Assembly: GCA_945881865.1 (NCBI GenBank)
Contig: CAMCVK010000012.1
Span: 1,498 to 65,497 of the forward strand
DNA: 64,000 bases
Direction of reading: 5' to 3'
Origin: Fimbriimonas ginsengisoli Gsoil 348
Lineage (GTDB): Bacteria; Armatimonadota; Fimbriimonadia; Fimbriimonadales; Fimbriimonadaceae
Below, in pieces: positions 49,183 to 64,000 of this stretch. Each line of letters opens with the position of its first letter. Position 1 is the stretch's first letter. Position numbers and translations under genes: made by a program. Under the pieces are notes generated by a model, which was given only the letters and a program-made list of their open reading frames with translations, had not been told where the DNA came from and did not search any database.

Positions 49183-49204
49183 GCACGGGTACCCTCCGTT
49201 GCCA

Positions 49205-50452
49205 ATGAAAATCCTTGTCGTAGGGGCGGGCGGCCGAGAACATGCCCTGGTTTGGAAGCTCGCCCAGTCCGCCGAGGTCATATGTGCGCCCGGAAATGCC
49301 GGAATCGCGCAGGAAGTGCCGTGCTTCGCGGTGAATCCGATGGAATCAGATCGGGTTGTTGCCCTAGCAAAGACCGAAAACGTGGACCTCGTGGTGGTCG
49401 GGCCGGAGGATCCTCTTGTGAACGGGCTTGCGGATGCGCTCCGCGCGGCAGGAATTGCGACCTTCGGGCCGGGACGGGACGGCGCGCAAATCGAGGCGAG
49501 CAAGGCATTTTCAAAGGAACTGATGGCGGCCGCCTCGGTTCCGACCCCAGAGTTTCGGGTGTTCACGGAAGCCGAACCGGCAAAAGCCTACGCGCGCCAG
49601 CGGTTTGCGGATGGCTTTCCTGTCGTCGTAAAGGCTTCCGGCAACGCGCTCGGGAAAGGCGTCGTCGTCTGCGACACCGAGTTTGAAGCGGAAGACGCCA
49701 TTCGTCGCATGCTCGTCGACCGCGTCTTCGGTGATGCCGGTCGTGAAATCATAATCGAGGACCGCCTGAACGGTTTCGAGTTCAGCATCCTCAGCATCGT
49801 AGGGGATCACAATTTCGTCAGCCTGCCAATCGCGCGGGACCATAAGCGAATCGGCGACGGTAACGTTGGCCCAAACACCGGAGGAATGGGCGCGTTTTCG
49901 CCGGTGGCTTCCGTCCCGGCTGAGATGGTCAAAGACGCCGAGGACCGTCTCGTCGCCCCGATTCTGGCCGCCCTCCGTGAGCGCGGCATTCCCTTCCGCG
50001 GAACGCTTTTCAGCGGCATCATGACCCACAACGGGCAGCCGTTTTGCTTGGAATACAACGCGAGGTTTGGTGATCCGGAGACTCAGCCGTTGATGATGCG
50101 GCTCGGCGCAGGCTTCCCGGAGGCTTTGTACGCCGCCGCGACGGGCGAAGTCGTGCCCGAGATTGAAGTCCTCGACCGTGCCGCCGTTGGCGTGGTGGTA
50201 GCAAGCGCCGGCTATCCTGGGGAGGTCGTGAAGGGCATTCCTATGGAGATCGCTCCAGCGCCCGAGGGGTCAAAAGTCTTTCACGCCGGAACAAAGATGC
50301 AGTTGGGCCGTCTCACCACCAACGGCGGACGCGTGGTCTGCGCGGTGGGAACCGGACAAAGTGTGGAAGAAGCTAGGGCGTGCGCTTACCGGGCCGCGGA
50401 CACGGTGAATTTCGTTGGCGCCTACCGGCGCAGCGACATCGCCGCAGAATAG
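49205..50452 (+). CDS. purD: Phosphoribosylamine-glycine ligase
   Basis: KILVVGAGGREHAL, VVGPEDPL, KASGNALGKGV, GPNTGGMGA, EYNARFGDPETQ, TNGGRV. Confidence 0.96.
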   Translation: MKILVVGAGGREHALVWKLAQSAEVICAPGNAGIAQEVPCFAVNPMESDRVVALAKTENVDLVVVGPEDPLVNGLADALRAAGIATFGPGRDGAQIEASKAFSKELMAAASVPTPEFRVFTEAEPAKAYARQRFADGFPVVVKASGNALGKGVVVCDTEFEAEDAIRRMLVDRVFGDAGREIIIEDRLNGFEFSILSIVGDHNFVSLPIARDHKRIGDGNVGPNTGGMGAFSPVASVPAEMVKDAEDRLVAPILAALRERGIPFRGTLFSGIMTHNGQPFCLEYNARFGDPETQPLMMRLGAGFPEALYAAATGEVVPEIEVLDRAAVGVVVASAGYPGEVVKGIPMEIAPAPEGSKVFHAGTKMQLGRLTTNGGRVVCAVGTGQSVEEARACAYRAADTVNFVGAYRRSDIAAE

Positions 50453-50462
50453 AACGCAAAAA

Positions 50463-50490
50463 AAGGGGGCGAGAAAAATCTCGGCCCCCA
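50463..50490. terminator. GC hairpin preceded by A-run between purD and purB
   Basis: GGGGGCGAGA-AAAA-TCTCGGCCCCC, with an A-tract 5' (U-tract on the minus strand). Confidence 0.4.
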
Positions 50491-50602
50491 CTCTCCGTTC
50501 TGCGATCCGTCCTGCTCAAGTCGGCAAGAACGATCCCTTTGACGGTGCCAACGCGGGATTGTTCCGGGTTACGCGACAAATGTTGGCTGGTACCCTCAAG
50601 GC

Positions 50603-51898
50603 ATGATTGATCGGTATACGACTCCGGCGATGAACGCGATTTGGTCCCGTGAGGCGAAGTACCAGGTGTGGGAAGACGTCGAGCTTGCGATTGTAGAGGC
50701 GCACGCAGAGCTAGGAACGGTTCCAAGCTCCGCCGTGGATGTGATCCGCGAGAAGGCGACGTTTGACCTTGAGCGCTGCGACGAAATCGAATTAGAAACC
50801 CGCCACGACCTCATGGCCTTTGTGCGGAATCTCAGCGAAAACGTTGGGGAAGAGGGCCGCTACATCCACATGGGCGTCACCAGCTACGACGTCATCGACA
50901 CCGCGCTGGGCATCATGCTCCGAAACTCGGCCGACGTGCTGCTTGCTTCTGCGCATCGCCTCGCTACGGAAATTCGCCGACTTGCAGAGACCCACATCGA
51001 CACCCCCTGCATTGGCCGCACCCATGGCATCCACGCCGAGCCGGTCACATTCGGGTTTAAATGCGCGAACTGGTACGCCGAGCTGAGCCGTAACATCGAG
51101 CGGCTTCAAATCGCCCGGGCTGACGTTGCGATGGGTAAAGTCTCGGGTGCCGTCGGAATTCACGCGATCACTTCACCGGAGATGGAGTCGATTGTCTGCC
51201 GAAAGCTTGGCCTTTCGCCCGAGCCCGCCTCAACGCAGATCATCAACCGAGACCGGCACGCCGGGTTCCTCAATACGTTGGCCTTGATGGGCGCCGGACT
51301 CGAGCGCATCGCAACCGAACTGCGAAACCTCCAGCGCACCGAGATTTTGGAGGTTCAGGAGGCGTTTGCCAAGGGCCAAACCGGCAGCAGCGCCATGCCC
51401 CACAAGCGGAACCCTTGGAATAGCGAGACGGTTTGCGGACTCGCCCGTCTACTGCGAGCCAACTCCCACGCGATGTTAGAGAGCGTCGCCACATGGCACG
51501 AGCGCGACCTGACGAACTCGTCGCTGGAGCGAATCATCTTCCCGGATTCGTGCCAACTCGCCGACTTCATGCTGAACCGCCTCACCGCGATCCTGGCTGG
51601 GCTCAACGTTTTCCCCGAGCGCATGATGCAAAACATGCGGATGATGGGCGACCTCGTGTTCAGCGAGCACGTCATGATTGCCCTCGTTCAGTCCGGCATG
51701 AGCCGGGAAGAGGCCTACAAAGTGGCCCAATCGAACGCATCGAAGGCGTGGGAAGGCCACGACTTCAAGACCTCCGTCGCCAACGACGAACGGGTCACGA
51801 GCCGCCTGACGTCGGCCGAAGTCGAAGAGCTGTTCAGCCTGGAACACCACCTGCGGCACGCCCGGCACACCCTTTCGGCCGTCGGCATCGGGTCGTGA
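50603..51898 (+). CDS. purB: Adenylosuccinate lyase
   Basis: MIDRY, H.G.TSYDV, GRTHGIHAEP, GSSAMPHKRNP, WHERDL. Confidence 0.96.
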   Translation: MIDRYTTPAMNAIWSREAKYQVWEDVELAIVEAHAELGTVPSSAVDVIREKATFDLERCDEIELETRHDLMAFVRNLSENVGEEGRYIHMGVTSYDVIDTALGIMLRNSADVLLASAHRLATEIRRLAETHIDTPCIGRTHGIHAEPVTFGFKCANWYAELSRNIERLQIARADVAMGKVSGAVGIHAITSPEMESIVCRKLGLSPEPASTQIINRDRHAGFLNTLALMGAGLERIATELRNLQRTEILEVQEAFAKGQTGSSAMPHKRNPWNSETVCGLARLLRANSHAMLESVATWHERDLTNSSLERIIFPDSCQLADFMLNRLTAILAGLNVFPERMMQNMRMMGDLVFSEHVMIALVQSGMSREEAYKVAQSNASKAWEGHDFKTSVANDERVTSRLTSAEVEELFSLEHHLRHARHTLSAVGIGS

Positions 51899-51902
51899 CC
51901 CG

Positions 51903-52526
51903 GTGTGCGCTCGCTACCACGTCATCTCGCCGATTCACGAGCTGACCGACCTGCTCGACGCCCCGTTCACGCTGCCAACGGGGTGGCTGGCGGGTGACAT
52001 TCTGCCGTCAAACCTGGCTCCGGTTGGATTGCAGGGCGGCTGGACGACGATGAAGTGGGGGTTCGTTCCGCCGTGGGTCGAAGATCCGGTGAAAGCGAAG
52101 ATCTTCATCAACGCGCGCAGCGAGACGGTCGCCGAATTGCCCAGCTTCCGGCAGGCTTTCCGCGCAACCCGCTGCATCGTTCCGGCCGATCTCTTCTACG
52201 AATGGAAGGAGGTACCGGTCGGAACGCCGTCGCTGTTCGGTGGGCCGGCGGACCGATATGAGAAGCAGCTGATGTCCTTTCGCATGACTTCCGGACGGCC
52301 GTTTGCGATGGCGGGAATCTACACGCAATCGAAGGGCGGGGATCGGTTCGCCGTCCTCACATGCGACCCAAACGCGCTACTTGGCACGATTCACGACCGA
52401 ATGCCGTGCATTCTAAATCCCGATCAATTGCACGCATGGTTAGACCCGCAAACGCCGCGCGGGGAACTGGAACGCCTCCTTACACCGTATCCCGCATCCG
52501 AGATGGTTGGCGCCGACGTTGGGTAG
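51903..52526 (+). CDS. SOS response-associated peptidase (SRAP/HMCES/YedK)
   Basis: N-terminal M-C-A-R-Y, MKWG, INARSET, FYEW, IHDRMP. Confidence 0.92.
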   Translation: MCARYHVISPIHELTDLLDAPFTLPTGWLAGDILPSNLAPVGLQGGWTTMKWGFVPPWVEDPVKAKIFINARSETVAELPSFRQAFRATRCIVPADLFYEWKEVPVGTPSLFGGPADRYEKQLMSFRMTSGRPFAMAGIYTQSKGGDRFAVLTCDPNALLGTIHDRMPCILNPDQLHAWLDPQTPRGELERLLTPYPASEMVGADVG

Positions 52527-52589
52527 CTGCCGATGAAACTCGGTCCGAAATTGGGAACGTTTTTGGACCGGCTCGAATAAACTAATCCG

Positions 52590-53246
52590 ATGCCCGACCG
52601 AAAGATCCGCGTGATGATTGCCGAAGACGACACGGCCCTGCGAAGGTCGCTTGTTGAGCTTCTGAACCTTGAGGAGGATCTCGTCGTGGTTTCAAACGTG
52701 GGGAACGGTGCGCAGGCACTAGCCGAAGCCGGAGTGCTGAAGCCGGATGTGATCCTCACCGACATCGACATGCCACAGGTCACGGGCATCGAGCTCACCC
52801 GCGAGATTCGAAAAATGCTGCCGGATCTTGCCGTGGTTGTGCTAACCAAGTTCGGCGATGACGATAACGTGTTTTCCGCAATCAAAGCGGGCGCCATCGG
52901 CTATGTCCTGAAGGACTCCGGATTCAACGAGATCGCCGGCGCGGTTCGCATGGCGGTGAACGGGGAAGGGTTCCTCAGCCCGGCCATCGTGGGCAAGGTG
53001 CTGTTTGAGTTCAAACGGCTCTCAAAGTCGGCCTTGCACAACCGCCAGGCTTTTGCCGAACTTTCGCGGCGTGAAGTTGAAGTGCTGGAGTGCATCGCCG
53101 CCGGAATGAAGAACGCCGCCATCGCGGACAAGCTGTTCCTCAGTGAGAAAACCGTAAAAAGCCACGTTGGTTCGATCCTTAAGAAGCTCCACGTCAACGA
53201 CCGAGCGGAAGCGGCGGCGCTTGCCCAGCAAAGCGGCGTCATCTAA
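52590..53246 (+). CDS. NarL/LuxR family response regulator (orphan)
   Basis: VMIAEDD, TDIDMP, GYVLK, LSRREVEVL...TVKSHV..ILKKL. Confidence 0.95.
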   Translation: MPDRKIRVMIAEDDTALRRSLVELLNLEEDLVVVSNVGNGAQALAEAGVLKPDVILTDIDMPQVTGIELTREIRKMLPDLAVVVLTKFGDDDNVFSAIKAGAIGYVLKDSGFNEIAGAVRMAVNGEGFLSPAIVGKVLFEFKRLSKSALHNRQAFAELSRREVEVLECIAAGMKNAAIADKLFLSEKTVKSHVGSILKKLHVNDRAEAAALAQQSGVI

Positions 53247-54023
53247 TTGGTGGAGTACCAAGCCTGGCAACTCGGGCTGGTAGGCCTTGCCGCTTTCATC
53301 ATCGGATTCTCGAAGACGGGAATTCCCGGCACGGGGATCCTCATGGTGCCGATGATGGCGGCCGTTTTTGGCGGGCGACTCTCGATCGGCGCGACGCTTC
53401 CGCTTCTGATCGCCGCCGACTGCTTCGCGGTTGCCTTCTATCGCCACCACGCCGACTGGCAACATCTGAAGAAACTGGCGCCCTGGGTCATTCTCGGCAT
53501 TATCGTCGGGGCAATCACGCTGTTTCTACTGGGCCGATTGCACCTGAAGTTTGACCCGCTTACGCCAATCATCGGCGGGATCGTGCTGGTCATGCTTGTG
53601 CTTAGCCTGTTGCGCGGAAAGCTCGGCGACCGCCTCGTGCCGACCTCGCGCGAGGGCGTCGTCGCCACCGGCGCGCTCGCTGGATTCACGACGATGGTCT
53701 CGAACGCGGCCGGGCCGATCATGCAGATCTACCTGGTGGCGACCGGCATGGCGAAAAAGGAGCTGATGGGTACCACGGCTTGGTACTTCTTCATTTTTAA
53801 CCTCACCAAGGTTCCATTCTTGATTGCGATCGATCTCGACAACCCAAGCGAGCCGCTTTTTACCGCAAGCACCCTTTGGCTGGACCTCGCCGTTTTGCCT
53901 ATCTTGGTGGTCGGTGCTTTGACGGGGAAGGCGTTGCTGCCGTTCATTCCGCAAAAAGCGTTCAATGCAATTGTCCTCACTTTGGCCGCCGCCGGAGCGA
54001 TACGTCTGCTGTTTCCGGCGTAA
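53247..54023 (+). CDS. Sulfite exporter TauE/SafE family membrane protein
   Basis: GFSKTGIPG, GFTTMVSNAAGP, and multiple TM helices. Confidence 0.88.
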   Translation: MVEYQAWQLGLVGLAAFIIGFSKTGIPGTGILMVPMMAAVFGGRLSIGATLPLLIAADCFAVAFYRHHADWQHLKKLAPWVILGIIVGAITLFLLGRLHLKFDPLTPIIGGIVLVMLVLSLLRGKLGDRLVPTSREGVVATGALAGFTTMVSNAAGPIMQIYLVATGMAKKELMGTTAWYFFIFNLTKVPFLIAIDLDNPSEPLFTASTLWLDLAVLPILVVGALTGKALLPFIPQKAFNAIVLTLAAAGAIRLLFPA

Positions 54024-54107
54024 TTTATGCCGCTCGAACCGGGCCGATAACTTGCCCGGCGGGTATACCGTAGGAGAAGGAGCGTATCCCGCCTCCAGGA
54101 GAAACCG

Positions 54108-55124
54108 TTGTCGAACTTAACCGAAGAATTTCCTTCCATCAGCTCAAATGACCTGAAACAGTATCTCCGGGAGATGCTCTTCATTCGCCGCTTCGAAGAG
54201 CAGTGCAACATCGCTTACCGCGCCGGACTTGCGGGCGGCTACATGCACACGTACATCGGCATGGAAGCCCTGGCCAGCGGCTGGATCAACTCGATCCGTA
54301 AAGGCTACGATTACGTGATCACCGCTTACCGCGACCACGCCCACGCGCTTCTGCTGGGAACCGACGCCGTTGCCGTCATGGCCGAGATCATCGGTCGAAA
54401 GGGCGGAACTGCCGGCGGAAAGGGTGGCTCGATGCACATTTACGACCCGGAGAACGGCTTCTACGGTGGCTGGGGAATCGTGGGCGGCCACGTTCCGCTT
54501 GGCGCGGGACTTGCCTACGCAGCCCGATACCGCAACGAGGATCGCGTTGTGCTCAACTTCATGGGCGACGGCGCGGCCAACCAGGGCGTGGTTTACGAAA
54601 CCCTGAACATGGCGTCGCTCTACGACCTGCCGTGCATCTTCATCGTGGAGAACAACGAGTTCGCGATGGGAACCCGACTTGAGTACCACGCCGCCGACCC
54701 CGAACTTTGGAAGCGCGGCCAGCCGTACAACATGAAGTGCGAGCGAGTGGACGGCATGGACGTCATCCAGATGCGAAAAGATGCCCAGCGCATCATCGAC
54801 TGGGTTCGCGAGAACCAGAAGCCGTACTGGGTCGAAGTCATGACCTACCGCTACGCCGGCCACGGCGCCGCCGACAACGACCGCCAGCTCTACCGAACCA
54901 AGGAAGAAGAGGAAGTTGCCTGGGCGCGAGACCCGATCGCTCGACTTCGCAAGTACCTCATCGAGAACAACATCATGTCCGAGGAGGCCATCGAAGCCGT
55001 TGAGGCCGAGACCGAAGCCGAGGCGCTTGCCGTGCTTGAAAAGGCCAAGGAAAGTCCATTCCCCGATACGGACGAGGTTTACGACAACATTTACACCGAC
55101 ATGACGCCGGAGAAAGGACACTAA
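54108..55124 (+). CDS. pdhA: Pyruvate dehydrogenase E1 alpha
   Basis: RRFEE, YRDH, GKGGSMH, MGDGAANQG, ENNEFAMGT, TYRY.GH, DPI. Confidence 0.93.
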   Translation: MSNLTEEFPSISSNDLKQYLREMLFIRRFEEQCNIAYRAGLAGGYMHTYIGMEALASGWINSIRKGYDYVITAYRDHAHALLLGTDAVAVMAEIIGRKGGTAGGKGGSMHIYDPENGFYGGWGIVGGHVPLGAGLAYAARYRNEDRVVLNFMGDGAANQGVVYETLNMASLYDLPCIFIVENNEFAMGTRLEYHAADPELWKRGQPYNMKCERVDGMDVIQMRKDAQRIIDWVRENQKPYWVEVMTYRYAGHGAADNDRQLYRTKEEEEVAWARDPIARLRKYLIENNIMSEEAIEAVEAETEAEALAVLEKAKESPFPDTDEVYDNIYTDMTPEKGH

Positions 55125-55125
55125 G

Positions 55126-56130
55126 ATGCCGAACATGATTGAGCTGAGCTATCGCGAAGCCCTGCAAAAGGGAATCGTCGAAGAAATGGAGCGCGACCAA
55201 AACGTCTTCCTCATGGGAGAGGACATTGGCCGCTACCAGGGCACCTTTAAGGTCACCCGCGGCCTGGTCGAGAAGTTTGGCCAGCGCGACAACCGCTACA
55301 ACCTCCGGATTCTGGACACGCCGATCACCGAAGCTGGCTTTGCCGGAATCGCGACCGGTGCCGCAATGGCGGGTCTGCGACCAATCGTCGAGTTCATGAC
55401 CATGAGCTTCTCGATCCTCGCGCTCGACCAGATCATCAACCACACCGCGAAGATTCACTACATGACGAACGGCGTCGTGAAGTGCCCGATCGTCTTCCGT
55501 GGTCCCGGTGGCGCAGCCAAGCAGCTGTCGGCGCAGCACTCCCACAGCATGGAGGGCTGGTACGCCCACGTTCCCGGTCTTAAGGTGCTCGCACCTTCGA
55601 CTCCGGCCGACGTCTACGGCATGATGAAATCGGCCGTCCGAGACGACAACCCGGTCATCCTTTACGAAAACCCGGGCCTCTACGCCATCAAGGGGATGGT
55701 TCCGGAGGACGATGCGGCCTTCACTGTGCCAATCGGCAAGGCGGCCATTCTCCGCGAAGGTAAGGACATCTCGCTCGTCGGTTACTCGCGAATGACGCAG
55801 ATCAACCTCGAAGTGGCCGAGCTGCTGGCGAAGGACGGAATCGACGCCGAAGTCGTCGACGTCCGCTCGCTCCTCCCGCTGGACACCGAGACGATCTACG
55901 CTTCGGTTAAGAAGACGCACCGCGCGGTTGTGGTCTACGAAGACTGGCGAAGCGGCGGCTTTGGCGCCGAGATCGCGGCCCGAATCGGGGAAGATTGCTT
56001 CGACGATCTGGACGCCCCGGTGCTTCGCGTGGGCGGCCTTAACGTTCCCATGCCGTACGCGCGCAACCTCGAGCTTCAGTGCATCCCGGACGCGGACGAC
56101 GTACTCGCGGCCGTCCGCAAAGCGTTCTGA
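55126..56130 (+). CDS. pdhB: Pyruvate dehydrogenase E1 beta
   Basis: MGEDIG, DTPITEAGF, EFMTMSFS..A.DQI.N, SAQHS, PMPYA..LE. Confidence 0.93.
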   Translation: MPNMIELSYREALQKGIVEEMERDQNVFLMGEDIGRYQGTFKVTRGLVEKFGQRDNRYNLRILDTPITEAGFAGIATGAAMAGLRPIVEFMTMSFSILALDQIINHTAKIHYMTNGVVKCPIVFRGPGGAAKQLSAQHSHSMEGWYAHVPGLKVLAPSTPADVYGMMKSAVRDDNPVILYENPGLYAIKGMVPEDDAAFTVPIGKAAILREGKDISLVGYSRMTQINLEVAELLAKDGIDAEVVDVRSLLPLDTETIYASVKKTHRAVVVYEDWRSGGFGAEIAARIGEDCFDDLDAPVLRVGGLNVPMPYARNLELQCIPDADDVLAAVRKAF

Positions 56131-56143
56131 GCTGAAACTGAAA

Positions 56144-56169
56144 GAGGGTTCTCGGTAACGAGAACCCTC
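56144..56169. terminator. Perfect 11-bp hairpin after pdhB
   Basis: GAGGGTTCTCG-GTAA-CGAGAACCCTC. Confidence 0.6.
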
Positions 56170-56229
56170 GTAGTTCTACCAGTTTAGGCCAAAAACGATT
56201 TGTTTTTTGCATTCTTCCGGTTTTCGCCC

Positions 56230-56258
56230 TTGACAATATCCTCAGAAAGCCTTAGGCT
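56230..56258 (+). promoter_or_regulatory. Sigma70 promoter, lipoprotein copy 1
   Basis: TTGACA-17nt-TAGGCT, with T-rich upstream element. Confidence 0.7.
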
Positions 56259-56283
56259 GATATCTTGTCTGAATAGGAAGCAT

Positions 56284-57102
56284 ATGCAATTCAAGCCAAC
56301 TCACTTTATTCTTGGAGCCTGCGTCGTCACGGCTCTTGCCTGCGGCGGCGGTGGCGGCACCTCCAACCAATCTGGTATCGAGACTGACCCTAAGCAGCGA
56401 TCGTATACCCCGATCAACTTGACTTACGACAACACGACGGTCGACATCAAGATCAACGGTGCGGACATTCTCAACTCGGCAAGCGCGCCGATCGGGAAGA
56501 GCCTCGTTGCTTGGCCCGCGACGACCGCTCTCGTTCCGAGCTTCCGAACCACCTCGCCACAGACGCCAGCCGGACAGGTGCCTTACGAAATCAAGAAGAC
56601 TGGCGGCGCGGTCCTCACGCTCCCAACCCTAGCTGCCAAGCAAACGGCGTCAGATCGGCACCTGTTCGTCATCAGCGGCACCGAGTCGGCAATTCGCGGC
56701 TTCTACATTCCGTTCTTGGTTCCTAACGATACAAACCCGGTCGCGGTCGTCAGTGTCACTCACTTAGCGGCGCCCACCTTCGCTGGTTCGGCTGCGGTTC
56801 CGGCTGCCGTCGACGTCCACCTCACGGCACCCGGTGCGGCTCCCACCCTTACCACCAAGGCCATCATCGGAATCTTGTATCAGACCTTTCCGGACGTCTT
56901 CAGCCCATTCGGCTATAAGTTCGTCGCGGCCGCGGGTGCGGGTGCGAAGGACGTCGTCATCACGGCTAAGGACTCCTTGACCGTGGTTGCTCGAAGGAGC
57001 ATCACGATCACGAAGAACTTCAACCACTTCATCATCCTCAGCCGAAACGCGGGTGTCCCGACGGTTTACAGCTACGACTACAAGTACTGGAACCTTCCGT
57101 AA
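56284..57102 (+). CDS. DUF4397-like lipoprotein, tandem copy 1
   Basis: Lipobox ALA-C, two repeats of a strand-H/N-L-x-P...VD(I/V) motif, C-terminus YSYDYKYWNLP. Confidence 0.8.
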   Translation: MQFKPTHFILGACVVTALACGGGGGTSNQSGIETDPKQRSYTPINLTYDNTTVDIKINGADILNSASAPIGKSLVAWPATTALVPSFRTTSPQTPAGQVPYEIKKTGGAVLTLPTLAAKQTASDRHLFVISGTESAIRGFYIPFLVPNDTNPVAVVSVTHLAAPTFAGSAAVPAAVDVHLTAPGAAPTLTTKAIIGILYQTFPDVFSPFGYKFVAAAGAGAKDVVITAKDSLTVVARRSITITKNFNHFIILSRNAGVPTVYSYDYKYWNLP

Positions 57103-57118
57103 GGAACGTCTCGTCCTT

Positions 57119-57149
57119 GCCCCCGCCGGTCTCGGCGGGGGCTTTTTTT
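57119..57149 (+). terminator. Rho-independent terminator
   Basis: GCCCCCGCCG-GTCT-CGGCGGGGGC-T7. Confidence 0.92.
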
Positions 57150-57243
57150 GTTCCAATTCGGCTCGCATCGGCAGAAGGCGAAGTGTTGTGAGCGTATAAA
57201 GGCAAACCGTTTTGTTTTTTTAGGGTTAGGTGATCTTTCCCCC

Positions 57244-57272
57244 TTGACTTTTTCTTCAGAACTCCTTAACAT
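57244..57272 (+). promoter_or_regulatory. Sigma70 promoter, lipoprotein copy 2
   Basis: TTGACT-17nt-TAACAT. Confidence 0.7.
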
Positions 57273-57297
57273 AGGCAGTTGTCCGAATAGGAAGCAT

Positions 57298-58089
57298 GTG
57301 CAATTCAAACCAACCCACATTTTCCTTGGAGCCATCATCGTTACGGCTCTTGCCTGCGGTGGTAAGGTCGGCAGCCTTGACAACAAGCCGAAGCAGCGTT
57401 CCTACACCCCGATTAACTTGAGCTACGACAATACATCTGTCGATATCAAGATCAATGGTGCTGACATCCTTAACTCGGCAAGCGCACCGGTCGGGAAGAA
57501 CCTCGCGGCTTGGCCGACGACAACTTCGCTTGTTCCTAGCTTCCGCAACACCTCGCCCGCAACGCCCGCAGGTCAGGTCGGTTACGAAATCAAGATGACC
57601 GGCGGATCGGTTCTTACGCGACCGAGTGCTACCGCTGAGCACACCCAAGCAGACCGGCAGCTGTTCATCATCAGTGGCACCGAGAGCGCGATTCGCGGCT
57701 CCTACATTCCGTTCCTGGTTCCGGATGAGTCGAACCCGATAGCCGTTCTGAGCGTCGTGCACTTAGCTTCTCCCGCCTTCGCTGCCTTTCCTGGCGTGCC
57801 TGCGAGTGTAGACATCTTCTTAACTGCTCCAGGTGCCCCGCCGACCGCTGCGACGAAAATCATGTCTCCCATTCGGTACACGACGGAAGACACAGGAGGT
57901 TACAAGTTCTTGGCAGCTACAGATGCGGGCGAGAAGGATGTTGTGATCACGGCAACGGATTCGTTGACCGTATTTTCCCGAAAGAGCATCACGATCACGA
58001 AGAACTTCAACCACTTCATCATCCTCAGCCGAAACGCTGGCGCACCGGCCGTTTACAGCTACGACTACAAGTACTGGAACCTTCCGTAG
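57298..58089 (+). CDS. DUF4397-like lipoprotein, tandem copy 2 (GTG start)
   Basis: Paralog of copy 1 with the same signal peptide frame and C-terminus. Confidence 0.8.
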   Translation: MQFKPTHIFLGAIIVTALACGGKVGSLDNKPKQRSYTPINLSYDNTSVDIKINGADILNSASAPVGKNLAAWPTTTSLVPSFRNTSPATPAGQVGYEIKMTGGSVLTRPSATAEHTQADRQLFIISGTESAIRGSYIPFLVPDESNPIAVLSVVHLASPAFAAFPGVPASVDIFLTAPGAPPTAATKIMSPIRYTTEDTGGYKFLAATDAGEKDVVITATDSLTVFSRKSITITKNFNHFIILSRNAGAPAVYSYDYKYWNLP

Positions 58090-58104
58090 GGAACGTTTAG
58101 TCTT

Positions 58105-58135
58105 GCCCCCGCCGGTTTCGGCGGGGGCTTTTTTT
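58105..58135 (+). terminator. Rho-independent terminator
   Basis: GCCCCCGCCG-GTTT-CGGCGGGGGC-T7. Confidence 0.92.
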
Positions 58136-58229
58136 ATCCCGTTTCGGCTGGCATCGGCAGAAGACGAAGTGTTGTGAGCGTATAAAGACAAACCGTTTTG
58201 TTTTTTTAGGGGTAGGTGATTTTTCCCCC

Positions 58230-58258
58230 TTGACTTTTCCTTAATAAATCCTCATGAT
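58230..58258 (+). promoter_or_regulatory. Sigma70 promoter, lipoprotein copy 3
   Basis: TTGACT-17nt-CATGAT. Confidence 0.68.
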
Positions 58259-58283
58259 AGGTCCTTGTCTGGAGAGGAAGCAT

Positions 58284-59075
58284 ATGCAATTCAAACCAAC
58301 TCACTTTTTTCTTGGAGCCTGCGTCGTCACCGCTCTTGCCTGCGGTGGCGGTAGCAGTTCGCCCGATCTCAGCGCCAAGAAGCGCTCGTACACCCCGATC
58401 AACTTGACGTACGACAACACGACCGTCGACATCAAGATCAACGGCGAGGACATTCTCAACTCGGCAAGCGCGCCGCTCGGCAAGGGCCTCGTCGCATGGC
58501 CGGCAACGAGTGCACTCGTTCCGAGCTTCCGAACCACCTCGCCCGCAACTCCGGCCGGCCAGGTCGGTTACGAAGTCAAGCGGACCGGCGGAGCGGTCCT
58601 CTCACTCCCGACGGCCAAGGCACTGCATACGCAGGCAGATCGCCAACTGTTCGTCGTCACCGGAACCCGGAGCGCGATTCGCGGCTTCTACATTCCGTTC
58701 CTCGTCCCGGATGATTCGAATCCGATCGCCGTTCTCAGCGTAACCAGCCTGGCATACCCAACAAACCCGGATGGGGTTCCTCTTGACGTCCACCTGACCG
58801 CCCGCGGTGCAGCTCCAACGGCCGCCACGAGGGTGATAACTGGGATCGCGGATTCGACGTCGCCGACGTCAACTAGCCCCTTCGGCTACAAATTCCTCGC
58901 GGCCGCTGATGCGGGTGCGAAGGACGTCGTCATCACGACAAAGGACGGCACGTTCGTAGTTTTTCGAAAGAGCATGACCATCACGAAAAACTTCAACCAC
59001 TTCATCATCCTCAGCCGAGAAAATGGTATCCCGGCGCTCTACAGCTACGACTACAAGTACTGGAACCTTCCGTAA
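58284..59075 (+). CDS. DUF4397-like lipoprotein, tandem copy 3
   Basis: Paralog, as above. Confidence 0.8.
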   Translation: MQFKPTHFFLGACVVTALACGGGSSSPDLSAKKRSYTPINLTYDNTTVDIKINGEDILNSASAPLGKGLVAWPATSALVPSFRTTSPATPAGQVGYEVKRTGGAVLSLPTAKALHTQADRQLFVVTGTRSAIRGFYIPFLVPDDSNPIAVLSVTSLAYPTNPDGVPLDVHLTARGAAPTAATRVITGIADSTSPTSTSPFGYKFLAAADAGAKDVVITTKDGTFVVFRKSMTITKNFNHFIILSRENGIPALYSYDYKYWNLP

Positions 59076-59090
59076 GGGGCGTCTAGTCTT

Positions 59091-59121
59091 GCCCCCGCCG
59101 TTTACCGGCGGGGGCTTTTTT
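59091..59121 (+). terminator. Rho-independent terminator
   Basis: GCCCCCGCCG-TTTAC-CGGCGGGGGC-T6. Confidence 0.92.
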
Positions 59122-59212
59122 GTTTGTTCCGCGCCTACCGTTTGCGCGCCCCGTAGTCCTACTGGTTTTCAAGAAACCGGCTTGGCGGCTCACCTGCATG
59201 TGATATTTCCTC

Positions 59213-59241
59213 TTGACTTTCGGCGAGTCAATCCTTATGAT
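59213..59241 (+). promoter_or_regulatory. Sigma70 promoter, lipoprotein copy 4
   Basis: TTGACT-17nt-TATGAT. Confidence 0.72.
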
Positions 59242-59266
59242 ATGTCCTTGTCTGGAGAGGAAGCTT

Positions 59267-60058
59267 ATGCAATTCAAACCAACCCACTTTTTCCTTGGTG
59301 CCATTATCGTCACGGCTCTTGCCTGCGGTGGCGGTAGCAGTTCGCCCGATCTCAGCGCCAAGAAGCGCTCGTACACCCCGATCAACCTGACGTACGACAA
59401 CACGACCGTCGACATCAAGATCAACGGCGCGGACATTCTCAACTCGGCAAGCGCGCCGCTCGGCAAGGGCCTCGTCGCATGGCCGGCAACGAGTGCACTC
59501 GTTCCGAGCTTCCGGACCACTTCGCCCGCGACTCCGGCCGGCCAGGTGAGCTACGAAATCAAGAAGACCGGCGGAGCGGTCCTCACTCTGCCGACGGCAA
59601 AGGCACTACATACTCAGGCAGATCGACAGTTGTTCGTGATCACCGGAACCGAGAGCGCGATTCGCGGATTCTTCATTCCGTTCCTCGTCCCGGATGATTC
59701 GAATCCGGTCGCGGTTCTCAGCGTGGCCATGCTGGCAGCGCCATCCAACCCCAGTTCATCGAGTATTGACGTCCACTTGACCGCCCGGGGTGCAGCTCCA
59801 ACGGCCGCCACGAAGGTGATCACGGGGATCCAGGATTCGTCTTCGCCGACGTCAACTAGCCCCTTCGGCTACAAGTTCATCGCGGCCGCTGATGCGGGTG
59901 CGAAGGACGTCGTCATTACGCCGAAAGACACCTTGGGCGTTGTTCTTCGAAACAACATCACCATCAGGAAAAACTTCAATCACTTCATCATCCTCAGCCG
60001 ATTCAATGGTAATCCGGCGCTCTACAGCTACGACTACGAGTACTGGAACCTTCCGTAA
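59267..60058 (+). CDS. DUF4397-like lipoprotein, tandem copy 4
   Basis: Paralog ending YSYDYEYWNLP. Confidence 0.8.
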   Translation: MQFKPTHFFLGAIIVTALACGGGSSSPDLSAKKRSYTPINLTYDNTTVDIKINGADILNSASAPLGKGLVAWPATSALVPSFRTTSPATPAGQVSYEIKKTGGAVLTLPTAKALHTQADRQLFVITGTESAIRGFFIPFLVPDDSNPVAVLSVAMLAAPSNPSSSSIDVHLTARGAAPTAATKVITGIQDSSSPTSTSPFGYKFIAAADAGAKDVVITPKDTLGVVLRNNITIRKNFNHFIILSRFNGNPALYSYDYEYWNLP

Positions 60059-60073
60059 GGGACGTCTAGTCTT

Positions 60074-60103
60074 GCCCCCGCCGGTTTCGGCGGGGGCTTT
60101 TTT
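60074..60103 (+). terminator. Rho-independent terminator
   Basis: GCCCCCGCCG-GTTT-CGGCGGGGGC-T6. Confidence 0.92.
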
Positions 60104-60105
60104 GT

Positions 60106-60552
60106 ATGCCTACCCTTCATCTCATGTGCGGATTGCCCTGCGCGGGAAAGACGACCCTCGCGAAGCGGCTTGAGATCGAGTACAACGCGTTACGCCTGAC
60201 GCCGGACGAGTGGCACATCGCATTGTTTGGCCCGGAGCCGGACGACGAGCGGCACACCCAGATTGAAGGGGTGATGTGGACCGTTGCCGCGCGAGTTCTC
60301 CAAATGGGCCAGGACGTCATCCTGGATTTTGGTTTTTGGTCCCGCGAGGAGCGGGACGACTTCCGCGCCCGGGCGGCCGCCCTCGGAGCAGACTGCCGTG
60401 TGCACTACCTGCACGCTACACTACAAACTCTCCAACAGCGGGCCATTGAGAGAAACGCCCAGCTTCCGGACCACACGTTTGAAGTGGGTCCGGAAGAGCT
60501 TGCCGACTGGTTCTGCCGGTTCGAGGCCCCGACCGACAACGAACTGGGTTAA
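60106..60552 (+). CDS. P-loop kinase / AAA_33 family protein
   Basis: LHLMCGLPCAGKTT Walker A, LTPDEW, VILDFGFWSREER. Confidence 0.85.
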   Translation: MPTLHLMCGLPCAGKTTLAKRLEIEYNALRLTPDEWHIALFGPEPDDERHTQIEGVMWTVAARVLQMGQDVILDFGFWSREERDDFRARAAALGADCRVHYLHATLQTLQQRAIERNAQLPDHTFEVGPEELADWFCRFEAPTDNELG

Positions 60553-63398
60553 CCCTTCGGCGGAACGAGCTCGAAGCCCATGTTTCGGCCTTTGTCTTTC
60601 GCCGGAACACCCTTCGCCATCCATTCCGGCATTGGGGTTGCCATCAGATAGTGGTCGAAGAACTGCTTCATGCGGATCGAAAGGTCCTTGCGGTTCTTCC
60701 GCTGAATCAAGTTATGGTCCTCATCGTTGTACACGACCAGCCAAGATGGCTTGCCGAGGCGGCGCAGCGCGGTGAAGTACTCGATGCTCTGCGTGTAGGG
60801 AACCGCGCCGTCCTTGTCGTTATGCATGATCATCAGCGGCGTCTTCACCTTATCGGCAAAGAAGATCGGCGAGTTTTCGATGTAGCGGAGCGTGCTGTTC
60901 CATGGCGTTCCGCCGATTCGGCTCTGCTGCCGCTCGTATTGGAACTGCCGCACCAGGCCCGACCCGTAGCGGATGCCGCCGTAGGCCGAGAACATGTTGG
61001 AAACCGGGGCGCCGGCTTCGGCGGCAGCAAACATATCCGTCTCCGTGACCATGTAGGCCACCTGGTATCCGCCCCAGCTTTGGCCCTGAATGCCGAGCCG
61101 CTTGGGGTCCACGTAGCCGCGATCGACGATGGAATTCACGCCGCTGACGATGGCGCTGATCGCGCTCTCGCCCGGGTAGCCGACCTTGTACGGGATGTCT
61201 GGCACGAAGACGACGTAGCCGTTGCTGCAATACAACGGAATGTTGACCGTGGAAGCCGACGGAGCCGGCACTCGGTGGGCGAACAGGCCGTCGCTGTCGC
61301 GCTCGTAGAAGTACGTGATCATCGGATACTTCTTCGCGTAGTCGAAGTTCTCCGGCTTGTAGAGCATGCCGTCCAGCTTTACGCCGTCGGCGCTTCGCCA
61401 CGAAACGAGTTCGACAGTGAGCCAGTTGAAGTCCTTCTGCTGCGGATTCGCATCGGTGAGGAGGATCGGCTTCTCAAAGTTGAGGTTCGAAACCCAAAGG
61501 TTCGGGTACTCGGTGACCGTTTCCTGCGAGAACAGGACCGTGTCCGAGACTCGGCCGGTCGATACGAGCGTGTACGCCTTTGGCCCGGAAAGCAGCGTTT
61601 TGAGGCCGCCTTTCTCGAGCCGCGCGATGCCGCGCTGCTTCGTTTGATCGCTAAAAGTGGCGAGCATCAGAGAGTCCAGCGACTGGATCTCCGGCTTCTC
61701 GGGGTCGATGATGATTCGGCTAAACGACGTGCCGCTTAGGCGACCAAAGGTTAGCTGCTTGGGCTTCGCCTTTCCGGTCGGATCGACCGCCCAAAGGTCG
61801 TACTTGTCCTTCAGGATCACGCGATCTTCGTTGGCCGTCCATCCTTGCGTGCCGTAGGAAGGCGGTGCATCCGGGTGGTCGTCGTCGAGGTCGAAGAGCG
61901 GGGTCGGAATGGTCGCCTGATGCTCGACGGACGTTCGCTTGCCGTCCGTGCTGATCGTGGTCACCGTCTTGGCGAACTCGTCGATGACGACGGCGTACTT
62001 GCCGGTCGGGCTCATCGAGACCGCGCCCCGGAGTTTGGTCGCGATCTGGTTTCTCGTGCCGGTCTTCACGTCCACCAAGAAAGCGTCTTCGTACTGACCG
62101 TCCCAAGACATCAGCTGCCGGTAGGGAAGGTTCGTCTCGGCAAGGGCCACATCGCCGTCGCCTTTGTCGGCGATCACCAGCGAGGGGAGCTCTGGCGATT
62201 CCAGCTGGGTCGTCTTTCCGCTTTCGGGTTCAAAGATCGCGTCGTACGTGCGCTCGCGCTCGGTCCTGGCCTGCAACAACTGCTGCGGCTGAAGCACCGG
62301 GTCCTGCCAGCTCCAAACGTCCACGGCGACCTTTTCGTCATCCGGAACTTCTTTGTCTTCGACCGGCTTTGGTCCGATGGGGAAAAACAAACGACGGCCT
62401 TTTTCCGACCAGCGCACCGAGCCGAACTCCGAGACGACAAAGTTCGTCGGGTTCTTCGGTTCGGTAATGCGCGTCAGCTTTTCCGACTTGGGATCGAAGA
62501 GATACAGCGACTGGGCCGGCTTCTTGGCCGCGTAATCGTCCTTGTCCGTCGTGAAGGCGAGTCGCTTGGAGCTTGCATCCAGCACCAGCCGGGCGTATCG
62601 CCCAAGGCCCTTTGCGGCGACCTTTGTGTTGCCGGTGCTCAGTTCGCGCCATTCGACGCGGTCGTTCGCGCCGTCCTTCTCGCTGATGGACAGCGCGATG
62701 ACGCTGCCGTCCCTGCTCCAGGCAAAGCTGGCCAGGTTCTCGATCTTGGATTCTTGGCCGTTCGCCAGGTTCAGCAGTTGGAAGGTTTGTCCTGGCCGGT
62801 GGTCGTCCTTTTTCTTCGGTGCCTTGTCGTCTTTCTTCGGCTCCGCTGCTTTTGGCTCCGCTGCTTTTGGCTCCGCTGGCCTGGGCTCCGCTGCTTTGGG
62901 TTCAGCGGGCTTTGGCTCGGGCGGCTTAGGTGCTTCTTTCGCCGGCTCTAATCGGTAAAGCAGATAGTTCGAACCTTCGGGGGCGAAGCTCACGCTCGCG
63001 ACCTTCTCGATGGTCCGCACCTTCGACGTCGTCAGATCGACGAGAACCAGGTTGTTCTTCGGCTGATCTTCCGGCTTCACCTTGTCGCGGCGGGCTTTTC
63101 GGGCCTCAAGGAACGCCGGAACCTGCGTGCCAAAGGCAAACTTGCTGTCCCGGGTAATCGTCCAGGAAGTCAGCCGGGGAACCTTAATCGTTCCGCTGCC
63201 GTCCGCACGGCGAATCTCCGCTTCGCTGTCGCCCTCCTGCGGACGATAGACGTAACCAACCCAGCGGCCATCCCTCGAGACCACCGGGCTCGCAATGCTT
63301 CGCCAACCGTCATACACCGATGCATCGAGCGGCTTCTTGTCGCCCCCAAATGCCAACGCCGCGATGAGAATCGCGCCGGCCCCCAACCAATATCGCAT
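60549..63398 (-). CDS. Secreted S9 prolyl oligopeptidase family protein
   Basis: Signal peptide, GQSWGGY, NDKDGAV, DEDH. Paralog of 43218-45956. Confidence 0.9.
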   Translation of the reverse strand: MRYWLGAGAILIAALAFGGDKKPLDASVYDGWRSIASPVVSRDGRWVGYVYRPQEGDSEAEIRRADGSGTIKVPRLTSWTITRDSKFAFGTQVPAFLEARKARRDKVKPEDQPKNNLVLVDLTTSKVRTIEKVASVSFAPEGSNYLLYRLEPAKEAPKPPEPKPAEPKAAEPRPAEPKAAEPKAAEPKKDDKAPKKKDDHRPGQTFQLLNLANGQESKIENLASFAWSRDGSVIALSISEKDGANDRVEWRELSTGNTKVAAKGLGRYARLVLDASSKRLAFTTDKDDYAAKKPAQSLYLFDPKSEKLTRITEPKNPTNFVVSEFGSVRWSEKGRRLFFPIGPKPVEDKEVPDDEKVAVDVWSWQDPVLQPQQLLQARTERERTYDAIFEPESGKTTQLESPELPSLVIADKGDGDVALAETNLPYRQLMSWDGQYEDAFLVDVKTGTRNQIATKLRGAVSMSPTGKYAVVIDEFAKTVTTISTDGKRTSVEHQATIPTPLFDLDDDHPDAPPSYGTQGWTANEDRVILKDKYDLWAVDPTGKAKPKQLTFGRLSGTSFSRIIIDPEKPEIQSLDSLMLATFSDQTKQRGIARLEKGGLKTLLSGPKAYTLVSTGRVSDTVLFSQETVTEYPNLWVSNLNFEKPILLTDANPQQKDFNWLTVELVSWRSADGVKLDGMLYKPENFDYAKKYPMITYFYERDSDGLFAHRVPAPSASTVNIPLYCSNGYVVFVPDIPYKVGYPGESAISAIVSGVNSIVDRGYVDPKRLGIQGQSWGGYQVAYMVTETDMFAAAEAGAPVSNMFSAYGGIRYGSGLVRQFQYERQQSRIGGTPWNSTLRYIENSPIFFADKVKTPLMIMHNDKDGAVPYTQSIEYFTALRRLGKPSWLVVYNDEDHNLIQRKNRKDLSIRMKQFFDHYLMATPMPEWMAKGVPAKDKGRNMGFELVPPKG
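62839..62928 (-). repeat. Six-unit 15-bp coding tandem repeat (PKAAE-like linker)
   Basis: GGCTCCGCTGCTTTT x2 perfect plus four degenerate units, encoding KPPEPKPAEPKAAEPRPAEPKAAEPKAAEP. Confidence 0.85.
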
Positions 63399-63491
63399 GC
63401 ATTGAACTTACATCAAAAACGGCCGCCGTAGTTTCCAATCTGGTTGGAAGTGCATCCGCCGCGATGAAAACCGGCGGTACCCTAGTCGCAA

Positions 63492-64000
63492 ATGTCGCTT
63501 GCCAATAAGATCGCCGATTTCGCCACCACTCTCGACTACGAAGACCTGACCCCGGCGGCCATCCACGAGGTGAAGCGACGAACCATCGACAGCTTTGCCT
63601 GCGCGATGGGTGCCTGGACGGCCGAGCCGGCGCGAATTGCCCGCCACCTGGCAATGTTCTCCACCAGCGAGCTTGGAGCCACGGTCATCGGAACGCGACA
63701 CAAAACGACGCCGGACCAGGCGGCCTTCGCGAACGGCGTGCAGATTCGCTACCTCGACTACAACGACACGTACCTCAGCAAGGAGCCTGCTCACCCTTCC
63801 GACAACCTCGCCGCGATCTTCGCGATCGGCCAGGCGTTCGAGCTCACGGGCCAGGACGCGATCCTCGGCGCGGTCATCGCCTACGAGATTCAGTGCCGAC
63901 TCTGCGACGCCTACAGCATCCGCAGCCGAGGTTGGGATCACGTCACGTACGGCGCGTTCTCGACGGTTGCCGGTTCGGGCGCGATGCTCGGCTTCGATGA
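63492..64000 (+). CDS. prpD: MmgE/PrpD family (2-methylcitrate dehydratase), partial
   Basis: Manual translation MSLANKIADFA...KRRTIDSFAC...AAFANG..IRYLDYNDTY.SKEPAHPSDN...AYEI...RGWDHVT. Runs off the window end. Confidence 0.9.
   Translation, partial: MSLANKIADFATTLDYEDLTPAAIHEVKRRTIDSFACAMGAWTAEPARIARHLAMFSTSELGATVIGTRHKTTPDQAAFANGVQIRYLDYNDTYLSKEPAHPSDNLAAIFAIGQAFELTGQDAILGAVIAYEIQCRLCDAYSIRSRGWDHVTYGAFSTVAGSGAMLGFD

Follow-up and report, generated by a model that had tools for sequence, protein, structure and literature searches.

A copy-number-variable tandem array of predicted lipoproteins with a candidate DUF4397/AlgF-type fold in a freshwater Fimbriimonas-like bacterium

Recombining tandem arrays of lipoprotein genes are a known kind of locus. 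In the vlp/vsa loci of Mycoplasma and the vmp/vls loci of Borrelia, paralogous lipoproteins are encoded in tandem, share a conserved signal peptide and 5' region, vary in the mature part, and recombine between copies. The same combination is found in an array of four predicted lipoprotein genes (c1 to c4) at positions 56200-60103 of the window, which is the whole stretch of 64,000 nucleotides analyzed here. The window lies on contig C12 of a genome (G000) that is 98% complete, is assembled in 26 contigs and belongs to an uncultured freshwater Fimbriimonas-like bacterium. Compared with the Mycoplasma and Borrelia loci, this array is without a detected switch, its proteins have an unrelated fold, and its host is free-living in freshwater.

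By fold, the closest described proteins are found elsewhere. The canonical DUF4397 protein of the same genome (PF14344; contig C10, L061:1411-2094) likewise has a signal peptide, a predicted lipobox Cys, a Gly-rich tether and ~230 mature residues in two tandem sandwiches, but its motif (V/I)R-x-x-H-x-S-P-D-A-P-x-V-D-V is replaced in the array proteins by RSYTPINLTYDNTTVDIKING. Its gene is single-copy and widespread (171 matches), whereas the array subfamily is arrayed and restricted to a single species cluster. The AlgF family model (PF11182) also picks up some DUF4397 proteins. AlgF of Pseudomonas aeruginosa (PDB 6D10) is a soluble periplasmic protein encoded within the alginate operon, which mediates protein-protein contacts and has no catalytic site (PMC10641220); the array has no flanking polysaccharide genes, and its products are predicted to be lipid-anchored and exist in several copies. 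The best match among solved structures is the ectodomain of mammalian PepT1/PepT2 (PDB 5A9D, 5A9I, 7PMX), a tandem two-sandwich module at the membrane that recruits a protein partner, trypsin (PMC4597091). This ectodomain is inserted into a eukaryotic MFS transporter and has 10-13% sequence identity to the array proteins; the resemblance is one of fold only. The original prediction recognized no described system with this layout, and this is only partly right, given that the proteins are remote relatives of DUF4397/AlgF-fold lipoproteins and that recombining lipoprotein arrays are known.

Predicted fold and lipidation of the array proteins

The four proteins probably represent a fast-evolving subfamily of envelope proteins that is restricted to one lineage and anchored by lipid, with two beta-sandwich domains of the DUF4397/AlgF type in each protein. 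They are 71-86% identical to one another and share the N-terminus MQFKPTH...TALAC-GG and the C-terminus YSYDY(K/E)YWNLP. The signal peptide has a basic n-region, a hydrophobic core, and a Cys at the cleavage site (MQFKPTHFFLGACVVTALAC-GGG), and this Cys is invariant in all 16 full-length members of the family, distant ones included. The lipobox is A-L-A-C (Ala at -3, Leu at -2) versus the canonical [LVI][ASTVI][GAS]C, and it fits looser patterns. Tethers of the C-GGG type are common among the predicted lipoproteins of this genome, where ALAC, AIAC, LLAC or LAAC is followed by a poly-Gly tether. The genome encodes LspA (signal peptidase II; PF01252 match of 116 bits in contig C1) and an Omp85/BamA protein, and it gave no Pfam match to LolA. 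The proteins are predicted to be anchored by lipid in the envelope, with a mature part of ~230 residues (~25 kDa) formed by the two tandem beta-sandwich domains.

Searches of Pfam, NCBIfam and PDB sequences with the proteins gave no match, and for this reason the homology to DUF4397 rests on profile-profile and predicted-structure evidence. When the family profile (alignment A2, 18 members) was aligned by hhalign with that of bona fide two-domain DUF4397 lipoproteins of Armatimonadota (A4), a probability of 97.4% and an E of 1.3e-11 were obtained over 212 columns. With both signal peptides removed, the values were 90% and 1.7e-6 over 181 columns spanning both domains. The AlphaFold2 model of c3, made from an 18-sequence alignment, is all-beta with two domains (predicted local distance difference test, pLDDT, 72; predicted template-modelling score, pTM, 0.75). 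Its first strand starts at Arg34, right after a disordered 13-residue tether (pLDDT below 50) from Cys20. The best structural matches of this model in the PDB are the PepT1/PepT2 ectodomains (E 5e-7, template-modelling (TM) score 0.42-0.55); the HGSNAT luminal domain, AlgF-C, BcpA, pneumolysin and transthyretin were also matched. The published set of structural neighbors of AlgF is the same as that of the c3 model (PMC10641220). In BFVD, the top two structural matches are annotated as DUF4397 (E 4e-8, TM 0.50-0.57). Both the profile comparison and the AlphaFold model give a two-domain beta-sandwich of DUF4397/AlgF type, and it is concluded that the array proteins are best regarded as very divergent members of this superfamily, beyond the reach of the Pfam model.

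Anatomy, copy number and recombination of the array

The array consists of four head-to-tail direct-repeat units of ~1 kb each, spaced by 983-1014 bp. Each unit comprises a promoter of the form TTGAC(A/T)-17-(-10), a conserved leader, a Shine-Dalgarno sequence, a gene for a lipoprotein of 263-272 amino acids, and a terminator, and each gene is one open reading frame on the plus strand. Apart from the Shine-Dalgarno sequence, this anatomy, with its differing -10 boxes and a GTG start in one copy, had been described in the original prediction and is borne out by scans for repeats, promoters and terminators. The features are as follows.

56144-56169, unstranded: hairpin immediately downstream of the pdhB stop codon, marking the array's ancestral left junction; also found upstream of the single-copy relative
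56192-56258, plus strand: control region of unit 1, with AAAACGATTT and a T-run, -35 TTGACA (56230-56235), a 17-bp spacer and -10 TAGGCT (56253-56258)
56275-56280, plus strand: Shine-Dalgarno sequence AGGAAG of unit 1
56284-57102, plus strand: c1, 272 amino acids, ATG start; signal peptide, ALAC-GGG, two beta-sandwich domains; predicted lipoprotein
57119-57149, plus strand: terminator 1, 10 G-C pairs and a T-run
57204-57272, plus strand: control region of unit 2, with AAACCGTTTT and T7, -35 TTGACT (57244-57249) and -10 TAACAT (57267-57272)
57298-58089, plus strand: c2, 263 amino acids, GTG start; of the four copies, it diverges most and has the lowest codon adaptation
58105-58135, plus strand: terminator 2
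58190-58258, plus strand: control region of unit 3, with -35 TTGACT (58230-58235) and -10 CATGAT (58253-58258)
58284-59075, plus strand: c3, 263 amino acids; the copy modelled with AlphaFold2
59091-59121, plus strand: terminator 3
59174-59241, plus strand: control region of unit 4, with a degenerate upstream element, -35 TTGACT (59213-59218) and -10 TATGAT (59236-59241)
59267-60058, plus strand: c4, 263 amino acids; the copy in which near-identical strains differ, and a mosaic with c3
60074-60103, plus strand: terminator 4
60124-60552, plus strand: AAA_33 P-loop kinase-like gene, which follows the array in every array-bearing contig

A consensus promoter scan recovered TTGACT-17-TAACAT, -CATGAT and -TATGAT before c2, c3 and c4, respectively (three found versus 1.2 expected), and the c1 promoter, TTGACA-17-TAGGCT, was assigned by eye. 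The T-rich upstream element that had been claimed for every unit (AAAnCGnTTT and a T-run) is clear in units 1-3, but degenerate in unit 4; the spacer farther upstream of unit 4 resembles the pdhB-proximal spacer of unit 1. A genome search found AAAnCGnTTT followed by TTGAC in a promoter-like context only within the array and, therefore, no regulon can be defined from it. All four terminators have 10 G-C pairs followed by a T-run, and across the 3.23-Mb assembly their hairpin is found at these four places alone. An Rfam search at E<=1 returned just sub-threshold matches on the terminators and no leader RNA family. The -10 box of unit 3 is polymorphic, being CATGAT in the window and TATGAT in the related contig L074. 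Copy c2 unites the GTG start, a weaker -10 box and the lowest codon adaptation index (CAI) of the four. A graded expression of the copies, as read from the -10 sequences, by which c4 would be the strongest copy and c1 the weakest, is unsupported.

The number of units between pdhB and the S9 peptidase gene is not fixed among relatives, as had been suspected. Copy numbers and mosaics were read from metagenome assemblies, in which one unit is present in contig L016, two in L073 (the second very divergent), at least two in L074, three in L019 and L020, and four in the window, L017 and L018. In the single-copy L016, whose flanks are ~88% identical, the same upstream element, a TTGACT-17-TAAGAT promoter, the leader, the Shine-Dalgarno sequence and the terminator are all found. 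This means that the whole monocistronic unit was duplicated, which would explain the independent transcription of the copies that had been proposed. Synonymous divergence (dS) is 0.6-1.2 among c1, c2 and c3/c4, and 0.24 between c3 and c4, while the flanking orthologues of the window and L016 differ by a dS of 0.25-0.33. Given that the divergence between copies exceeds that of the flanks, the older duplications probably predate the split of the lineages. In a tree built from all copies, resolution is poor and the topology star-like, and the longest branch is that of c2.

Overall identity between the window and the conspecific contigs L017 and L018 is ~97%, with blocks that match exactly interspersed with others at 90-95%. 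Against L017, blocks of 100% and 90-95% identity alternate every few hundred bases over window positions 47300-64000, and this alternation reflects either frequent homologous recombination in the population or a strain-chimeric metagenome assembly. At the protein level, c1-c3 are 99-100% identical between the window and L017/L018, and c4 only 90%. The fourth copy of L017 is c4-like to nucleotide ~529 and c3-like beyond, and the third gene of the three-copy contigs follows c3 to nucleotide ~139 and the fourth copy of L017 beyond. Both breakpoints are clean (maximum chi-square p<0.0005). Mosaics of this kind are the signature of gene conversion and unequal crossing-over.

A phase-variation switch based on an invertible promoter, slippage or silent cassettes was not found. 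No promoter-flanking inverted repeats were found at the array, the T6/T7 tracts are identical across the assemblies compared, and all four copies have their own promoter and start codon, with no silent promoterless cassettes among them. A diversity-generating retroelement is judged unlikely, since the differences include indels and recombination blocks and are not point changes confined to a single template region; no search was aimed at such an element.

Genomic setting and distribution of the family

The array is preceded by pdhA and pdhB, and followed by the small AAA_33 kinase-like gene and a convergent gene for an S9 peptidase, which is closest to that of a Fimbriimonas metagenome-assembled genome. 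At NCBI, the homologues of another lipoprotein of this genome carry the name Fimbriimonadaceae or Armatimonadota. In three other species of the genus (G044, G014 and G008; contigs L068, L069 and L070), the pdhB-S9 junction holds a PadR regulator instead, which indicates that the array occupies a variable spot (window 56131-60552) between conserved genes. At the junctions of these three species, the relatives in which the junction was recovered, tblastn found neither the lipoprotein nor the AAA_33 gene. One of the three PadR-bearing junctions also holds a membrane protein and a prepilin-type protein.

The region of the AAA_33 gene (60106-60552) is faintly zeta-toxin-like. It begins no more than ~20 nucleotides from terminator 4 and shares sequence with the 3' end of the peptidase gene that converges on it. 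Within this peptidase gene, at window positions 62824-62928 on the minus strand, at least five 15-nucleotide tandem repeats encode an insert of the form (A/P)EPK(A/P), rich in Pro, Glu, Lys and Ala, near the N-terminus. When the window and the conspecific L017 are compared in bins of 250 bp, identity is lowest here (79%), which suggests variation in repeat number.

The close family is small, with 11 clusters among 5.8 billion proteins. A set of 1.84 billion proteins yielded nine representatives, one of them close. Among 45 other species of the genus, a match was found in three, all of them distant (E 1e-10 to 1e-16), and a close copy in none; a pattern scan of public genome contigs with the family returned no relative. 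The distant members adjoin ppdK (pyruvate phosphate dikinase), where this genome has a single copy (C8:65239-65985; L005:1498-2244, minus strand) and two tandem copies are present in G014, a complete genome of the genus (C1:1609788-1611425; L009:601-2238). This neighborhood is probably the older home of the family.

In total, the genome encodes at least ten lipoproteins of DUF4397/AlgF type, namely the canonical one in contig C10, a weak one in C7, three in C2, one in C8 and the four array copies. Those in C2 (C2:87883-90112; L006:1-2229) form a row of three paralogous lipoproteins of ~240 amino acids (MKFKPVPFFLALGIATALAC...) with weak DUF4397 scores. Their genes are only ~30 nucleotides apart in an operon-like arrangement without individual terminators, and a GH19/lysozyme-like gene follows on the opposite strand. 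Elsewhere in this assembly, rpsJ (S10) is solitary (C15:7418-7726), and tuf and fusA (C19:25892-29757) are present without the usual S10-spc ribosomal protein operon after them.

Constraint, competing explanations and possible role

Conservation is seen in domain 1 and in the C-terminal aromatic strand, and diversification in the Gly/Ser tether and in several parts of domain 2. In a comparison of ten close alleles, domain 1 has the lowest mean entropy (0.37), domain 2 about twice as much (0.71) and the tether the most (0.84). The variable segments lie after the Cys and at residues ~157-167, ~184-198 and ~245-251, where the original prediction had placed them, and also at residues ~108-113 and ~221-229. 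Their proposed concentration in loops is less clear, given that the enrichment of variable sites in predicted coil and loops is not significant (odds ratio 1.6, p=0.14), and the contrast between domains 2 and 1 is the clearer one. In windows of 15 codons, the proportion of non-synonymous differences (pN) has its maxima in the tether (residues 21-33) and in the segments 100-118, 150-168, 181-200, 216-230 and 241-250.

In the favored explanation, that of a fast-evolving lipid-anchored DUF4397/AlgF-type subfamily, a complete monocistronic unit was duplicated in tandem at the variable junction between pdhB and the S9 peptidase gene. Unequal crossing-over and gene conversion among the units have given rise, in natural populations, to one to four copies and to mosaic alleles. 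The proteins may function as membrane-tethered binding or adaptor modules, in analogy to AlgF and the PepT1/PepT2 ectodomain. Conserved domain 1 would serve as a scaffold, the variable face of domain 2 would be turned toward a changing partner (a phage, a grazer, a substrate or an envelope protein), and several separately promoted copies would provide a mixed repertoire. In other respects the family, though real, is a fairly ordinary case of fast evolution among envelope genes, produced by ordinary tandem duplication of a monocistronic lipoprotein gene.

Several observations weigh against this explanation. No Pfam match to DUF4397 (PF14344) was obtained for c1-c4 at E<=1, nor for any of the 18 members of alignment A2 at E<=5. 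The ALAC sequence is also compatible with an AxA site of signal peptidase I. Copies c3 and c4 are without differences over ~160 nucleotides, which is longer than the assembler k-mer and, therefore, the three-copy form may be an assembly collapse. The codon adaptation of all four genes is average. With regard to selection, constraint is not uniform along the gene, as had been anticipated, but positive selection is not supported, because the ratio of non-synonymous to synonymous differences (pN/pS) exceeds 1 in no 15-codon window, with a maximum of 0.77. For this reason, the variation can be explained equally well by relaxed constraint and by diversifying selection.

These ratios, together with a whole-gene ratio of non-synonymous to synonymous divergence (dN/dS) of 0.17-0.53, also fit a housekeeping role, in which the proteins would be periplasmic adaptors that scaffold an envelope complex as AlgF may do, the duplicates would only raise dosage, and the loop variation would be neutral drift. 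That AlgF, the closest characterized bacterial relative by fold, is a periplasmic mediator of protein-protein contacts points in the same direction, and no export system for surface lipoproteins is known from this phylum. Nonetheless, such a role is considered unlikely. The dS of 0.6-1.2 between copies indicates that they have long been kept distinct and unhomogenized, which is unexpected for pure dosage, and almost all other species of the genus lack the family, whose copy number also varies between close lineages. A contingency locus, in which four alleles of a surface-exposed DUF4397-fold lipoprotein would be reshuffled to change the domain 2 surfaces shown to phages and grazers, is a more doubtful proposition still. 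In a bolder variant, the proteins would dock secreted peptidases, such as the neighboring S9 enzyme, onto the envelope, as the PepT ectodomain does with trypsin.

The reading of an abundant surface adhesin or S-layer with graded expression, as originally predicted, is only partly supported, and an S-layer or coat expressed at a very high level from four strong promoters appears very improbable. The near-consensus -35 boxes, strong Shine-Dalgarno sequences and strong terminators would agree with it. However, when CAI was calculated with tuf, fusA, two groEL genes, dnaK, atpA, atpD and rpsJ as the reference and ranked among all long open reading frames, c1, c2, c3 and c4 fell in the 80th, 48th, 70th and 72nd percentiles. 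This compares with the 98th-100th for tuf and groEL, and with the 100th and 99th for the adjacent pdhA and pdhB. Given these unremarkable values, nothing indicates exceptional abundance, and neither that part of the original prediction nor the surface exposure of the proteins is supported. In addition, the proteins are small, predicted to be lipid-anchored and of a binding-module fold, and the family is absent from most of the genus. It is likewise barely conceivable that the proteins are type V pilus-like subunits, cleaved after a conserved K(K/Q)R and polymerized by donation of the C-terminal strand YSYDYKYWNLP. The host genus is named for fimbriae, the precursors are predicted lipoproteins with an Arg conserved family-wide just before the first strand, and Foldseek gave weak matches to FimA/Mfa-like proteins of Bacteroides (E 6e-5 to 1e-3). 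Yet global similarity to 3SY6, 3UFI, 4K4K, 4H40 and 5NF4 is poor (TM 0.19-0.26, root-mean-square deviation 17-20 A), against a TM of up to 0.57 for DUF4397 and PepT. In the c3 model, cleavage at R34 would strip only the disordered 13-residue Gly/Ser tether, thereby removing no strand and opening no groove, and the C-terminal strand appears as an integral, high-confidence strand of domain 2. Furthermore, the genome has no match to FimA (PF06321), for which the control in Bacteroides thetaiotaomicron was positive, and no anchor or tip genes accompany the array, in which each gene is monocistronic. A gingipain-type C25 protease (PF01364) had no match in the genome either, although the control genomes were silent as well. 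The poor structural similarity, the lack of a groove-opening prosegment and the absence of a FimA family match have led to the rejection of the pilin explanation.

DUF4397 is a widespread envelope family without an assigned function. The divergent branch described here behaves like proteins that face a changing partner, given that it is lineage-restricted, variable in copy number and mosaic, with one variable domain, and this pattern suggests that the C-terminal domain functions in binding. The array also documents a flexible genomic spot, between pdhB and the S9 peptidase gene, in uncultured freshwater Armatimonadota. If the contingency-locus explanation were true, it would give the orphan DUF4397 family its first assigned role, as a variable, membrane-tethered receptor or decoy module.

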